Part shown: one piece after another, positions 22,214 to 26,106 of the stretch | Layout of the letters: every line of letters begins with the position of its first letter | Numbering within the stretch: position 1 is the stretch's first letter | Virus record (IMG/VR): IMGVR_UViG_3300027852_000026 | Coordinates: 1-39,007 of that record | Source: a virus | Reading direction: 5' to 3' (one strand) | DNA length: 39,007 bases | The notes under the pieces: model-generated | The model's input: only the letters and a program-made list of their open reading frames with translations | What the model was told of the DNA's origin: nothing | Databases searched by the model: none | Made by a program: the position numbers and the translations under genes

Positions 22214-22482
22214 TGGTGTTGCTCCGTAAATTGTTGGTGGTCGCGTTCGGCGCGTTCGGCGCGCTTTGTGATGATTTCTTGTGACTGTTCTTTGTTCATT
22301 AGCTGGCTGTCGGGTAAAACACTGAGTTGTAATGTTGGTTCGAGAGATTGGAAATAACGGTCGCAGCCGTCGGTGTTTGGTAGGGCGACTATTGCCGTTG
22401 CGTTCGCCAGTATTCGCATTAATTCATTGGCGTCTTCTGGCTCGACTGTGAATTGCTGAAAGCCAATGGTGGCAATAATCAT
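22210..22482 (-). CDS. hypothetical protein
   Basis: 90 aa, with a 4-bp overlap onto the upstream gene. Confidence 0.6.
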   Translation of the reverse strand: MIIATIGFQQFTVEPEDANELMRILANATAIVALPNTDGCDRYFQSLEPTLQLSVLPDSQLMNKEQSQEIITKRAERAERDHQQFTEQHQ

Positions 22483-22907
22483 GCTATTTGCTCCGGGTTG
22501 TTAGGCCCGTGGGGCCAGAAGAGGTCGCCGGTGTCGGGGTCGATGGTGAATAGGTCGCTGTCGGTTTTGCTGCGCCCGGTGCGGCGGGTTTTACCCCCGG
22601 CCCCCCGGCGTGCGATGGCGGTGTTTTGGTCGACTATGCTGTCGGCAATGGGTAGCCAAATACAGAGGCCCAGAAACAGGCAGGCGACGTATTTGATGTG
22701 GCCTTGTGCCCATAGCAGGCTGACGGCGTGGGGTGTGGTTTCGGCATTGAGTTTGTTTTTGGCGTGGTCTACGTGGCGGTAAGTGACTTTGCGCGATATG
22801 CGCAGGCAGCGCGCCACGTCTTTAATGAGTTTGCCTTCAGCGACTAGCTGAAAGACGTCTTCTTCGCGTGGGGTGAATAGGCCGTGGGTGTTTAGTTGAA
22901 TGTTCAT
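22479..22907 (-). CDS. LuxR/GerE-type HTH protein with a C-terminal transmembrane helix; first gene of the early-left operon
   Basis: FTPREEDVFQLVAEGKLIKDVARCLRISRKVTYRHVDHAKNKL matches the GerE HTH, followed by the hydrophobic YVACLFLGLCIWLPIADSIV. The start is set at the ATG at 22907. An in-frame alternative exists at 22925. Confidence 0.7.
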   Translation of the reverse strand: MNIQLNTHGLFTPREEDVFQLVAEGKLIKDVARCLRISRKVTYRHVDHAKNKLNAETTPHAVSLLWAQGHIKYVACLFLGLCIWLPIADSIVDQNTAIARRGAGGKTRRTGRSKTDSDLFTIDPDTGDLFWPHGPNNPEQIA

Positions 22908-22913
22908 GGGGTA

Positions 22914-22956
22914 AAAATAATACACATATATTATATAGTCAACTATTAGCGTAGTT
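22914..22956 (-). promoter_or_regulatory. candidate early-left promoter with operator (PL/OL analogue)
   Basis: On the minus strand: TTGACT (22942-22937), a 17-nt spacer, then TATTTT (22919-22914). The ATG at 22907 lies 7 nt past the -10 and has no SD. The inverted repeat AACTA-N6-TAGTT at 22941-22956 resembles the OR palindrome core ACTA(C/T)TAGCG. Confidence 0.45.
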
Positions 22957-23011
22957 ATTTTTCTATATTTATTTGTACCATGATTGGTTTTTATCTTTAT
23001 TGGGGTGTTTT

Positions 23012-23290
23012 GTGCGTTTTTTGCCGATAATATTTTTGTGTGTCGTTTTTAGCGCTAGAGCTGGGGGCGACGTGAAAATCAAGCGATTCTTTCAGTCGTC
23101 TGGTGGTTATATGAAGGTTTTGCTGGAGGTCGACAGGTCGCTAAAAGTTAAGTGCGCTGTTTATGATAAAAATGATGAGCCGTTGCGCGTTGATACGCAA
23201 TATGTCAGCCCACCAGTCGATGAGGTTTTGATTCGAACGGGAGATAGCACTGCGTTGTCGGCCAGTGTTAAATACTGGGTTATGGATTGA
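23012..23290 (+). CDS. small secreted protein (signal peptide MRFLPIIFLCVVFSARA)
   Basis: GTG at 23012 follows GGGG 5 nt upstream. 92 aa and AT-rich. The track TTG start at 22973 is also possible. Confidence 0.55.
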   Translation: MRFLPIIFLCVVFSARAGGDVKIKRFFQSSGGYMKVLLEVDRSLKVKCAVYDKNDEPLRVDTQYVSPPVDEVLIRTGDSTALSASVKYWVMD

Positions 23291-23312
23291 TTTTATAAAG
23301 GAACGGAACGCG

Positions 23313-23633
23313 CTATTTGTGATGCCACCAAATACGAAAGCGATTAACAACGTACCAAATCAGGCCTGCGGTAGTGAATAACGCAGGCATGGCGGATGGC
23401 TCACTTTGTGGGTTGCTTGCCAGGACGAATACCCAGGTAAGGCCAATAATGATTACCGATACAGAGATTAGTGTGTGAAGCTTGAACTTTTTGCTTGTCT
23501 CCTGAATGGTCTTAACTTGGGTGCCTGCCGCAACAGTCTCACGGGCTTCCGCTATTGGGGCGCCACACTTCGGGCAAGCCTCAGCCTTATCTGAAGCCTG
23601 GTGATTACATTCACTGCAATTTATTAATGCCAT
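23313..23633 (-). CDS. zinc-ribbon membrane protein (N-terminal CxxC...CxxC, two TM helices)
   Basis: 106 aa with CSECNHQASDKAEACPKCG, then the hydrophobic stretches LISVSVIIIGLTWVFVL and ALFTTAGLIWYVV. A strong SD (AGGAGA) lies 6 nt upstream of the ATG. Confidence 0.75.
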   Translation of the reverse strand: MALINCSECNHQASDKAEACPKCGAPIAEARETVAAGTQVKTIQETSKKFKLHTLISVSVIIIGLTWVFVLASNPQSEPSAMPALFTTAGLIWYVVNRFRIWWHHK

Positions 23634-23668
23634 CTATTCTCTCCTTTTATGGTTATTATTCTGTCATT

Positions 23669-23696
23669 AAAAAGCCCTGCTATTGCGGGGCTTTTT
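23669..23696. terminator. bidirectional rho-independent terminator
   Basis: Stem GCCCTG (23674-23679) / CGGGGC (23686-23691), loop CTATTG, flanked by AAAAA (23669-23673) and TTTTT (23692-23696). Confidence 0.75.
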
Positions 23697-23771
23697 GGTG
23701 TTTGGGTGGTAGTTTTGTGGGTGGCTGCCCGGTATGAGGGTTGATTGTTGTACGGTATTTTAGGGTGACTG

Positions 23772-24326
23772 CTACTCGTCAATGAAGTCGGGGTAGTAGG
23801 TGCTGGCTTTGTATTCGCAATGCGGATTAGTTTTATAAACTAGCTGTTCAAGGAAAATAGAGACGAAGTGAAACAGCGCAGATGGCTCTATGTTGTCCTG
23901 GCTAAAGGCTCTTATTGTGTCGATGTAAGAGTGGTCTGACAGGTAGATAGGTTTGTCGATAGTGACCTGGGTGCCGTTGTTGCGAAGCAGTGTTGAGTTC
24001 TCGAGAATGCAGATGGCGATGTCAAAGGCGATAACTGCGTTTGGGTTGTGTTCTGGGCCAGCTAGCTGCGTGCCATCTTTAAGCAGGGCGCTTTTAATGG
24101 GTTGCTTGGCTAAAAACCAGACAATAAAGTTGGCCGCTTTTTTGAATGTGCTGGCCTTGGCTGCGCCGCCCTCGTAGGGGAAGTTGTTGGTGTAGTTTGA
24201 TATGGTCTCGAACAGTGCGTCGCTGTCTACAGATATGATGGCGTCGGGGTCTACTGCTTTACCGAAAGCGCTGATGTGCGTTAATAGATTATTGTAGTCG
24301 TCAAAGGGTTTCTCGTTGTAGATCAT
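23772..24326 (-). CDS. hypothetical protein with no recognisable motif; moron next to the repressor
   Basis: 184 aa from the ATG at 24326 (the track uses TTG at 24335). It is AT-rich relative to the genome and bracketed by two terminator hairpins. Confidence 0.7.
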   Translation of the reverse strand: MIYNEKPFDDYNNLLTHISAFGKAVDPDAIISVDSDALFETISNYTNNFPYEGGAAKASTFKKAANFIVWFLAKQPIKSALLKDGTQLAGPEHNPNAVIAFDIAICILENSTLLRNNGTQVTIDKPIYLSDHSYIDTIRAFSQDNIEPSALFHFVSIFLEQLVYKTNPHCEYKASTYYPDFIDE

Positions 24327-24340
24327 TTTTTTCAATCCAT

Positions 24341-24367
24341 AAAAAACCCCCGCGTAGAAGGCGAGGG
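24341..24367 (-). terminator. intrinsic terminator/attenuator between the 69-aa and 184-aa moron genes
   Basis: Minus-strand RNA CCCUCGC-cuucuac-GCGGGGG (one bulge) followed by U6. It ends 14 nt before the ATG at 24326. Confidence 0.6.
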
Positions 24368-24383
24368 CTGGTTGCGGTACTGC

Positions 24384-24593
24384 TTAAGAGGTGGCTGTTA
24401 GTGATGCCTTTGCCAGGCGTGAGGCGCGCATTGCGATCTCGTCGGTGGTTCTGGTTTTTATTTGACCGGTGGCGTTGGTTGTGCCTAGTGATCTGGCTGG
24501 TACTTTTGCCTTTATGGCTTTTCCGTAATCGTCTGTTTTGACGTTGGCCTCAATAAGATTGTCAAAAACAACCTCTCTGTTGTCGGCGTTCAC
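24384..24593 (-). CDS. small hypothetical protein (69 aa)
   Basis: GTG start with a strong SD (AGGAGA) 6 nt upstream. It has its own promoter upstream. Confidence 0.7.
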   Translation of the reverse strand: MNADNREVVFDNLIEANVKTDDYGKAIKAKVPARSLGTTNATGQIKTRTTDEIAMRASRLAKASLTATS

Positions 24594-24660
24594 GATATCT
24601 CTCCTTTTTTCTGCAGTTGTCCCGCTTTGTGTTTTAAGTGTTGCCCAAAATTGGGCGCGG

Positions 24661-24689
24661 ATTCTATTGAGTTAGTTTGGTTGTGTCAA
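24661..24689 (-). promoter_or_regulatory. sigma70-type promoter for the moron cassette
   Basis: On the minus strand: TTGACA (24689-24684), a 17-nt spacer, then TAGAAT (24666-24661). The near-palindrome GCCCAAAATTGGGC (24643-24656) sits at the predicted transcript start. Confidence 0.65.
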
Positions 24690-24750
24690 GGTGTAAGCAT
24701 GCTCTTGCGTAACTATAGCATAGTTAATGGGGCGGTAAAGTGACGCTGGG

Positions 24751-25407
24751 TCACACCTGTCGTTTGCTGGGCGAGACTATAAGGGTGACGGGTTGCAGGC
24801 GTGTAACGTTGATTTTTTGCACGGTCATGGCGGGGTGTTGGTCGTTTATGCTGCCGAAGGTGTATTCGTCGTCGTGGGTATAGCGTAGTTCTTTGATCAT
24901 GCAAAGGCCGTCGGTGGTGCAGGCGACGACATATTCGCCCTGGTGTACGGGGCTGTTGGGCTCGATAACAACAAACCAGCCGTTTTTGATGGTAGGGGCC
25001 ATGCTGTCGCCGCGCACGCGCAGGGCGTAGGCGTCCGGGTCTTTTGACGAGGCAATGATAAAGCCGTCGCCGTGTTGTAGGTGGCCAAGGTCGTCCCAGT
25101 AGCCTTCTGGCCCGGCCTGGGCGTTGCCGACGATGGGGATTTGGTCTGGCGCTTTTACCGGATGAGAGTTGTAGTGGCCTTCTGCGTCTGCCACGCCGGC
25201 TGACGCCTTGTTTTCAGGGTTACCAGAAAGCCATTCAGCGGTGACATCGAGAGCTATGGCGAGAGCGACGATGTGAATCGAGTTTTGCTGGTCGCCCCTT
25301 TCTATTTGACTAATTGATCCCTGTTTGACGCGGGACGCCTCTGCTAGCTGGCTCTGTGTCCAGTTTTTGGCTTTTCTCGCAGCCCGTAATCGCTCACCCA
25401 TGCTCAT
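24751..25407 (-). CDS. cI-like prophage repressor (XRE HTH + S24 LexA-like autopeptidase)
   Basis: LRAARKAKNWTQSQLAEASRVKQGSISQIERG matches an XRE HTH. The C-terminal LRVRGDSMAPTI (Ser) and CMIKEL (Lys) match S24 peptidases. It is divergent from a cro-like gene. Confidence 0.92.
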   Translation of the reverse strand: MSMGERLRAARKAKNWTQSQLAEASRVKQGSISQIERGDQQNSIHIVALAIALDVTAEWLSGNPENKASAGVADAEGHYNSHPVKAPDQIPIVGNAQAGPEGYWDDLGHLQHGDGFIIASSKDPDAYALRVRGDSMAPTIKNGWFVVIEPNSPVHQGEYVVACTTDGLCMIKELRYTHDDEYTFGSINDQHPAMTVQKINVTRLQPVTLIVSPSKRQV

Positions 25408-25509
25408 GCGCGGATACTACTAGCGCGGTAGTACTCCTGCAAACTACTAGTATAGTGCTTGACGGCTATAATAATGTCTGTGTAGTATTGCAGGTCAAGA
25501 GGATTTGTT
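25408..25509. promoter_or_regulatory. immunity switch region (OR analogue) with divergent promoters
   Basis: Perfect inverted repeat TACTAC-N7-GTAGTA (25415-25433). ACTACTAG is repeated at 25416 and 25443. TACTAGTA palindrome at 25445-25452, and GTAGTA at 25482-25487. Rightward promoter TTGACG (25459-25464)-N18-TAGTAT (25483-25488). Leftward promoter TTTGCA (25443-25438)-N18-TAGTAT (25419-25414). Confidence 0.6.
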
Positions 25510-25773
25510 ATGTCGAAAGAGTTGGTAGCACGCTGTGCTGGCGTAGCGGGTAGCCAGGTTGAGTTGGTTGAAAAAATGAAGCCACACCTACCTGAGAGGC
25601 TAGCGAAATCATTTAAGCAAGGCCATGTGTCGAACTGGATACATTTGGAGCGGAAAAGCCCTGTGCCGCCGGGTGAGTACGTTATGGCTATGGTTAAAGC
25701 TGTTGATGGGGTTGTGCAGGCCCATGAGCTTCGCCCTGATCTGTATCCAGAGCCCAGCAAGTCTGTCGCATAA
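25510..25773 (+). CDS. Cro-like / YdaS-family HTH regulator
   Basis: 87 aa with SD AAGAGGA. VSNWIHLERKSPVPPGEYVMAMVKAVDGVVQAHELRPDLYP resembles the Cro/YdaS family. It is divergent from the repressor. Confidence 0.75.
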   Translation: MSKELVARCAGVAGSQVELVEKMKPHLPERLAKSFKQGHVSNWIHLERKSPVPPGEYVMAMVKAVDGVVQAHELRPDLYPEPSKSVA

Positions 25774-25878
25774 ATCATTAATTGCCTGTTCATAACTTGA
25801 TTATGACCGGGCTTTTTTTTGGGTTAACGGGGCAAAAATACCCCTTTACGAGTCCAGCGCTATTTACTTGTTAGGTGT

Positions 25879-26106
25879 TTAGCTGCGAGGTAAAGCAAAA
25901 CAAATGTACTTTTTGAGAATGTTCTTTTGATGGTATTTGTCTTTAAGTTTTGCGGCCATGAGCCCTTCGTAAACGGTGGGCGGTACCTGGAGGTATTTCT
26001 CGTGCCCTCCGTCGTTAAAGCTAAGTTCAAGCTCTTGTTTTATTGCGTTGTAACGGACGGCTTTGAGGAATTGAGATGATACATATTTCCAGCCCTGCGC
26101 TCCCAT
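25879..26106 (-). CDS. KTSC domain protein
   Basis: 75 aa from the ATG at 26106. FLKAVRYNAIKQELELSFNDGGHEKYLQVPPTVYEGLMAAKLKDKY matches the KTSC pattern (Yd...L.v.F..G..Y.Y..VP..vy..l..A.S.G.y). It is AT-rich and inverted relative to its neighbours. Confidence 0.65.
   Translation of the reverse strand: MGAQGWKYVSSQFLKAVRYNAIKQELELSFNDGGHEKYLQVPPTVYEGLMAAKLKDKYHQKNILKKYICFALPRS

Follow-up and report, generated by a model that had tools for sequence, protein, structure and literature searches.

In type III toxin-antitoxin (TA) systems (ToxIN, CptIN, TenpIN) and in the prophage module AbiF/RCd22, a promoter, an antidote RNA, a Rho-independent terminator and a toxin gene follow one another; the terminator keeps antidote transcripts in excess and so fixes the ratio of antitoxin to toxin, the toxin being made only when transcription reads through (PMC3401426, PMC12373285). 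Several of them are phage-defence modules, and one is prophage-borne. In Phd/Doc of phage P1 and in class I Fic pairs (for instance VbhA/VbhT), a small gene stands upstream of the gene for a helical Doc/Fic protein, the two genes travelling on a temperate phage or another mobile element. In phage lambda, rexA and rexB directly follow cI and share its strand; no terminator parts them from it, a terminator closes the unit, and the pair has an internal expression signal of its own. RexB is a polytopic membrane protein. Here we describe a cassette with likenesses to all of these in a viral genome of 39,007 nt (IMG/VR record IMGVR_UViG_3300027852_000026, positions 1 to 39,007; hereafter the window). 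Two genes, one for a 69-aa protein (the small gene) and one for a 184-aa protein (the large gene), lie directly past the cI-type repressor gene on the same strand, with their own promoter and a closing terminator as in rexAB; the small gene precedes that of a putative Doc/Fic-like helical protein as in phd-doc, and an intrinsic terminator between the two would leave the downstream gene to read-through as in ToxIN, CptIN, TenpIN and AbiF/RCd22.

Loci of the family were gathered from encoding contigs, from GTDB genomes and IMG/VR, and from JGI metagenomes, giving 31 distinct loci including the window (L numbers below denote loci). In about 30 of the 31, a homologous open reading frame (ORF) of 59-79 aa is found directly upstream of the large gene on the same strand, among relatives that are 24-45% identical, and no third gene is conserved at these loci. 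Pairwise identities of the small proteins correlate with those of the large proteins (r = 0.77; 0.65 without the near-identical pair), and none of 2000 Mantel permutations reached this r. A first-pass annotation of the window, made by a model from the letters alone, had read the cassette as a self-contained, regulated two-component module and had proposed checking whether homologues of the two genes co-occur. They do, and the promoter of the cassette, the co-divergence of its two genes and the terminator kept between them across the family bear out the description. We consider it highly probable that the terminator-split two-gene module is real and conserved.

The terminator was examined across the family. 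In the window, the hairpin comprises 9 pairs, 6 of them G-C (-13.8 kcal/mol), and begins 14 nt after the small-gene stop, with its T-run ending 14 nt before the large-gene ATG at 24326. The intergenic gap measures 57-102 nt in most loci (24327-24383 in the window). Under a strict rule (a perfect stem followed by a T-run), a terminator was detected in 16 of 18 family gaps, compared with none of 14 control gaps (gaps of 40-120 nt between other same-strand genes of these loci) and 0.36% of shuffles. A uniform RNAfold-based rule detected it in 22 of the 31 family gaps versus 0.6% of shuffled gaps, and inspection of the folds revealed a strong hairpin in 26 of the 31. The hairpins have no primary sequence in common, and these counts mark a terminator at this place as a trait of the family although sequence conservation is absent, so that the hairpin with U6 which had been taken to gate the 184-aa ORF in the window belongs to a conserved series.

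The distance from the end of the hairpin to the start of the large gene is about 14-30 nt at all loci but L012 (55 nt), and no promoter-like site is present within it. Since this leaves neither room nor a promoter-like site, the large protein must, judging from the sequence, be translated only from read-through transcripts; the small protein would therefore always be in excess, and the terminator is predicted to enforce an amount of small protein far above that of the large one. A Shine-Dalgarno (SD) sequence stands between hairpin and large gene in about half of the loci, and that of the window is weak. In the predicted RNA fold of 24327-24386 (minus strand), the stem extends to an outer helix that pairs the region past the small-gene stop with this weak SD (GGAU); according to this prediction, made on a single sequence (z = -2.2), read-through transcripts may also be poorly translated.

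Two further observations concern the gap. A motif (T/C)CGCAACCA just past the small-gene stop is common to the window (24370-24383), L001 and L006 (5931-5950), and weaker forms were seen in L007 (5925-5940) and L013 (7915-7935); the large proteins of L006 and the window are 41% identical, and the rest of their intergenic gap cannot be aligned. The gap is also a multiple of 3 in 17 of the 31 loci, above expectation (binomial p = 0.011). A fusion protein made by stop-codon read-through was considered and rejected, because 14 of the 17 in-frame loci carry further in-frame stops; the remaining 3 do not, and in the window the two ORFs share a frame and are separated by a single TAA.

The small gene is, from its pattern of substitutions, a protein gene and not an RNA gene, since the window and L001 differ in it by 9 synonymous and 6 non-synonymous changes. 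A good SD precedes it in most family loci. Homologous to one another, the small proteins have in common an hhFxNL[IV] motif at the N-terminal end and an amphipathic helix at the C-terminal end; in an alignment of 17 sequences, F10 and N40 never vary, and an N[AS]x[GSC] tetrad occupies the aligned position in every small ORF examined. The protein of the window is predicted to be soluble (pI 9.6), with no hydrophobic segment (maximum KD19 = -0.03). AlphaFold2 modelling of the small protein alone was unreliable (predicted local distance difference test, pLDDT, 62) and suggests beta strands followed by a C-terminal helix. It has no match in Pfam, NCBIfam or PADLOC and no informative one in PHROG, the PDB sequence and profile search was empty, and family libraries gave nothing for the 17 small proteins. 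The inhibitory (S/T)xxxE(G/N) motif of Fic partners occurs in 1 of 19 small proteins, which is consistent with chance, and the small protein of the window is without it. An RNA antitoxin was also considered, and rejected: the cassette contains no tandem repeat (Tandem Repeats Finder) and no Rfam match, and the small ORF has an SD and protein-level conservation. Thus, whereas the upstream element of type III TA and AbiF systems is a tandem-repeat or structured RNA, here it is a conserved protein-coding gene; and the downstream protein, with no Pfam or PADLOC match, is not an endoribonuclease of the ToxN or AbiF (HEPN) kind.

The large protein belongs to a small family that is annotated by no source. 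Its ATG at 24326 is backed by homologues, which begin MIY, while ORF calling extends the frame to a TTG at 24335. Word-indexed searching of 5.8 billion sequences yielded 11 relatives, and an exhaustive profile search of 1.84 billion representatives yielded 267 clusters at E<=1e-3. The protein is predicted to be soluble and acidic (pI 4.8), with no hydrophobic segment (maximum KD19 = 1.52). It has no match in Pfam, NCBIfam or PADLOC and no informative match in PHROG, family-library scans of 139 members were empty, and nothing was found in the PDB by sequence or profile with the large-protein family. An AlphaFold2 model from 12 sequences (pLDDT 84.9, predicted TM-score 0.83) contains six helices and a beta-hairpin. 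When it was compared with the PDB by Foldseek, the top match was P1 Doc (probability 0.77-0.97, TM-score 0.48 by query and 0.69 by target, root-mean-square deviation about 5 A, E = 0.4), followed by FicD, Fic-1 and other Fic proteins (TM-score 0.36-0.42), every other match having a TM-score below 0.3; a search of BFVD gave one unnamed match of note. The model thus points to a weak but consistent Doc/Fic-like fold. The first-pass annotation had reported neither a motif that it could place nor a transmembrane segment. Both statements hold at the level of sequence motifs and membrane segments, but that nothing can be placed has to be amended by this fold; a clear homology to a known structural or metabolic family was sought with Foldseek and the libraries, and none was found.

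The family nevertheless departs from Doc and Fic in its conserved residues. None of 162 members carries HxFx(D/E)GNGR or the Doc variant HxFx(D/N)(A/G)NKR, and none of 139 matches the Pfam Fic family (PF02661), even at E<=10. A local alignment by hhalign, itself not significant, is co-linear and places helices 2-3 on Doc alpha2-alpha3; the 'HPF' of Doc falls on 'x-P76-I', where a variable K/R/S precedes P76, indicating that the catalytic His is not retained. Because the motif is missing, Fic/Doc-type phosphoryl or AMP transfer by the large protein is unlikely. In 139 diverse members, S59, F61, K62, F67, F71, P76, N96, S130, H132, D136, E160, Y164 and N167 are near-invariant, and most of them sit at the ends of predicted helices; the H132-x-[YF]-x-D136 of the family lies before helix 5 and is not co-linear with the position of the Doc motif. 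This pattern looks like an enzyme active site. A likeness to class A beta-lactamase motifs (STFK, S-D-x, E, K-T-x) is presumably coincidence, and no structure of a beta-lactamase or penicillin-binding protein was among the Foldseek matches. Many homologues (alignment C-termini P0003-P0011) end, after a variable linker, in a conserved tail ...GDD(L/M)xG(V/N) that is absent from the window protein, from P0001 (near-identical to it) and from P0002, and one member (L011) has a C-terminal CxxC...CxxC tail. The sole domain fusion seen is P0140 (371 aa), whose family domain is preceded by an Mrr_cat restriction-endonuclease domain (PF04471, E = 7e-6).

The window is a complete temperate siphovirus-type genome, with genes for terminase, portal, head protease, major head protein, tape measure, integrase, endolysin and a DnaB-like helicase. 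Its cI-type repressor gene, on the minus strand, faces a Cro/YdaS-like gene, and the whole cassette is downstream of cI on the same strand (Table 1). Promoter, repeat, SD with 69-aa ORF, hairpin, 184-aa ORF and closing terminator, as listed by the first-pass annotation, are all present on the minus strand, at coordinates that were exact or a few bases off. The unit had been called AT-richer, which is mildly true of the cassette (47.6% GC compared with 52.5% for the window, 6th percentile), although its flanks are lower still. A scan from the cI stop (24751) to the cassette found no terminator-like site, so that the cassette can, by its layout, also be read from the repressor transcript like lambda rexAB. 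The closing terminator is 90% conserved in the related prophage L001.

Table 1. Features of the cassette and its surroundings in the window, and the repressor gene compared with it.
Feature	Coordinates	Strand	Remarks
cI-type repressor gene, HTH_3 + Peptidase_S24	24751..25407	-	directly upstream of cassette
Sigma-70-type promoter TTGACA-17-TAGAAT	24661..24689	-	11/12 consensus positions
Inverted repeat GCCCAA-TT-TTGGGC	24643..24656	-	spans predicted +1; role unproven; read from sequence
SD AAGGAGAG of small gene	24599..24606	-	5 nt before GTG; read from sequence
Small gene, 69 aa, GTG start	24384..24593	-	ORF; proposed antidote/regulator
Internal intrinsic terminator	24341..24369	-	9-bp stem, 7-nt loop, U6; stem 24369-24345, T6 to 24341
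Large gene, 184 aa, ATG start	23772..24326	-	ORF; proposed effector
Closing bidirectional intrinsic terminator	23669..23696	both	A5-stem-T5; z = -4.9 and -5.5 on the two strands
Repressor gene of L001	7114-7842		counterpart of window cI in comparison

The promoter had been singled out as near-consensus, and it is the best promoter-like site in 23000-26000, where a scan found 6 sites against 2.7 expected. Both hexamers are identical in L001, a prophage 88% identical overall, in which spacer and flanks vary. The inverted repeat, with 6-bp arms and a 2-nt spacer, begins 5 nt past the -10 hexamer and is predicted, as RNA, to open the leader with a 5-bp hairpin. The suggestion that it is an operator at +1 fared less well: the repeat is present, yet one arm is mutated in L001 (GCCCGA), and no comparable inverted repeat was found at the same place in other loci, nor any conserved operator or promoter motif upstream of the family's small genes. 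The repeat is real as sequence, but weak evidence. A second, weaker promoter-like site (TTTACC-16-TATAGT, with extended TG) lies at 24712-24739 on the minus strand, between cI and the cassette promoter; it overlaps an inverted repeat with 7-bp arms, TAACTATGCTATAGTTA, just past the cI stop, which is partly broken in L001.

We next consider where the pair occurs. Every named genome locus is a marine gammaproteobacterial metagenome-assembled genome (MAG), among them Bathymodiolus symbionts, Thiodubiliella, Ruthturnera, Sedimenticola, Cycloclasticus symbionts, Porticoccaceae, Acidiferrobacteraceae, Moraxellaceae and Pseudomonadales. Isolate phages and plasmids yielded no homologues of the family, a result that speaks neither for nor against any reading, and a literature search returned no paper on either protein family. 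The closest comparison is with L001, to which 25145-23771 of the window (the C-terminal S24 half of cI and the cassette) is 87.8% identical, whereas the N-terminal helix-turn-helix (HTH) half of cI is unrelated; in the window and in prophage L001/L009/L020, cassette and S24 half form one 88%-identical block. Read from this alignment, the mosaic of cI is an immunity-specificity swap with its breakpoint inside the gene, and, since the block is shared while the HTH half differs, the cassette apparently travels with the repressor cleavage domain across that swap. The view of the cassette as an independent insertion is not upheld by this comparison, in which cassette and C-terminal cI half are conserved together as a single block.

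Nor is the pair a phage-specific 'moron', as had been thought, for it also occurs in chromosomes among housekeeping genes, beside integrases and near a type I restriction-modification (R-M) operon. On viral contigs and elsewhere its neighbours vary: an HTH_3 regulator gene lies 508 nt upstream of it on the viral contig of L025, an AntA antirepressor gene and a tail gene flank it in L026, integrase genes adjoin it in L024 and L007, in L007 it also follows a type I R-M operon at a distance of 353 nt from the YgjP-like gene of that operon, and in L012 it is 225 nt downstream of a P63C phage-related gene. In L006, HEPN and PIN genes lie within about 1.5 kb and a methyltransferase gene 3.7 kb away; in several MAGs, ordinary housekeeping genes, for example those for aconitase, Lon, Clp and HSP90, lie within 5 kb; and in L019, a reduced symbiont genome, both genes are decayed next to an IS200 transposase gene. 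Because the pair also sits outside prophages, it is, by these contexts, a generic mobile module of toxin-antitoxin type and no speciality of the rexAB slot. The comparison with that slot is therefore only partly sustained. The position past cI, on the same strand and co-transcribable with it, stands, and by analogy this is the expected position for lysogen-expressed exclusion genes; homology to RexA or RexB was found in none of Pfam, PHROG and PADLOC. In contrast to RexAB, the pair shows no sequence or fold similarity to the lambda proteins and no membrane segment.

Taken together with the layout of type II TA systems that is found here (a pair of short neighbouring genes in one orientation that are inherited together, in contexts that vary and are often mobile), these data make a toxin-antidote or phage-exclusion/defence module, expressed in the lysogen as cargo next to the repressor, our preferred reading, to which we give about even chances. 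In such a module, the near-consensus promoter, probably together with read-through from cI, would transcribe the 69-aa gene, and the conserved intrinsic terminator would stop most transcripts 14 nt before the 184-aa gene. The small protein, in constant excess, would neutralise or regulate the large one, probably via its C-terminal amphipathic helix. The large protein would be the effector, with a Doc/Fic-like fold from which the Fic/Doc catalytic motif has been lost and a candidate active site formed by S59-x-x-K62, N96, S130-x-H132, D136, E160, Y164 and N167. It would be freed by a drop in the small protein, caused by loss of the element, by an infecting phage that shuts off host transcription or translation, or by proteolysis, and also by raised read-through of the terminator; addiction, abortive infection or exclusion in the lysogen could be the outcome. 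Dosage by a leaky terminator would then follow the logic of type III TA systems with a protein as the antidote. The patchy distribution and the different neighbourhood at each locus are, by analogy, typical of selfish toxin-antitoxin-like modules.

A more specific form of this proposal is put forward tentatively, as possible but doubtful: the pair may represent a new class of protein-protein toxin-antidote/Abi (abortive infection) module, with a dose set by the internal terminator and a Fic/Doc-fold effector whose Fic motif has given way to a new catalytic centre (S-x-x-K, S-x-H, D, E, Y-K-x-N), and able to respond, when another phage infects, to perturbed host termination or to loss of a short-lived antidote. 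That TA-like cargo can stand beside cI is known; the combination of a protein antidote, a conserved internal terminator and a motif-less Doc/Fic-like effector is new. As a toxin-antidote or exclusion module, the pair would add two protein families that are without annotation in any library searched. An internal terminator kept across about 30 diverged loci would be unusual for a protein-protein TA system, being otherwise known from systems with RNA antitoxins (type III, AbiF), and a Doc/Fic-like scaffold with different invariant residues raises the possibility of a new biochemical activity. So far the family is known only from marine Gammaproteobacteria that are uncultured, among them chemosynthetic symbionts of mussels, clams and sponges, and from their phages; mobile-element conflict systems are poorly charted in these organisms. 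With about 1 kb, a self-contained layout and its own promoter, the module should be easy to test.

Several points weigh against the toxin-antidote or exclusion reading. The toxicity of the large protein, its binding by the small one and any defence activity are putative. No PADLOC-DB 2.0 model matches either protein at E<=10, and the small protein has no recognisable DNA-binding domain, no Pfam match to HTH, ribbon-helix-helix or AbrB families having been obtained. The fold match is weak: no PDB structure reached E<=1e-3 in Foldseek, and hhalign against a 10-sequence Doc alignment gave a probability of 2.4%, which is not significant, as was also the case with a single Doc sequence; this alignment was built from plasmid sequences, a scan of viral contigs for Doc relatives having given only near-identical P1 Doc. 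Several loci lie among housekeeping genes with no defence neighbours. The terminator is not obligatory either, as about 5 of the 31 loci (L017, L126/128, L127, L135/136) are without one, their gaps being short or unstructured. Finally, the Mrr_cat fusion could equally mean that the family domain is a sensor or regulator and not the effector.

Among the alternatives, a non-toxic accessory pair fares best, though we regard it as unlikely. The two proteins would be a regulator and an enzyme or modifier of host physiology or phage development, with the terminator setting a low dose of the enzyme. The conserved polar residues do suggest an enzyme, several chromosomal loci sit among housekeeping genes, and neither protein has a match in a defence library. 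However, the distribution is patchy, the flanking genes differ at almost every locus and are often those of integrases, prophages or R-M systems, and one copy, that of L019, has decayed in a reduced symbiont genome. Patchiness, mobile neighbours and decay are typical of selfish or defence modules and not of a physiological pathway, which disfavours this explanation with respect to a toxin-antidote or exclusion module.

Attenuation by a translated leader is less probable still, and we hold it to be rather remote. Here the small ORF would act mainly in cis: ribosomes finishing 14-24 nt before the hairpin would modulate the terminator, the large gene would report the translation status, and the small protein itself would be secondary. 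The distance from stop to hairpin is indeed short in most loci (about 10-24 nt), the extended stem of the window would pair with the weak SD region of the large gene, and the frame bias of the gap described above would fit. Leader peptides, though, are usually shorter than 30 aa and poorly conserved, whereas the 59-79-aa product retains F10, N40 and, by prediction, a helix at its C-terminus, and diverges in step with the large protein. The stop-to-hairpin distance grows to 35-52 nt in L021 and L010, and no alternative antiterminator structure was identified.

That the two genes are unrelated neighbours, the small one ending at its own terminator and the large one silent or served by an unrecognised promoter, is very improbable. 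A strong terminator normally ends a transcription unit, and the SD of the large gene is weak in the window; yet the adjacency is kept in about 30 of 31 loci, at a divergence where flanking synteny is gone, the proteins co-diverge, and in most loci the interval of about 14-30 nt between terminator and start is free of promoter-like sites. Least probable of all is a true Phd/Doc- or FicTA-type system, in which a divergent Fic/Doc kinase or AMPylase would modify EF-Tu, gyrase or a similar target and the small protein would be an inhibitory-helix antitoxin: Doc and Fic are the best structural matches and the gene order on a temperate phage is that of P1 phd-doc, but against this stand the missing motif (0/162) and Pfam Fic match (0/139 at E<=10), the variable K/R/S before P76 that takes the place of the Doc catalytic His in the only co-linear alignment, a small partner that is unrelated to Phd/YefM, lacks (S/T)xxxE(G/N) and has no other Pfam match, and an overlap of the genes in 9 of 9 phd-doc loci retrieved, compared with the 57-102-nt gap and terminator here.

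Two neighbouring genes of the window deserve mention. After the cassette terminator, at 23313-23633 on the minus strand, lies the gene of a 106-aa zinc-ribbon protein (PF13240, phrog_6586), the C-terminal half of which is hydrophobic, and a 201-aa Zn-ribbon gene occupies the equivalent place in the related prophage on the opposite strand; as a third gene of the module this ORF was rejected, since it is not conserved beside the module elsewhere. In the early-left region, a 148-aa ORF at 22479-22925 (minus strand) has a counterpart of 142 aa in L001, with 84% DNA identity, which shows a weak match to a GerE/LuxR-type HTH.

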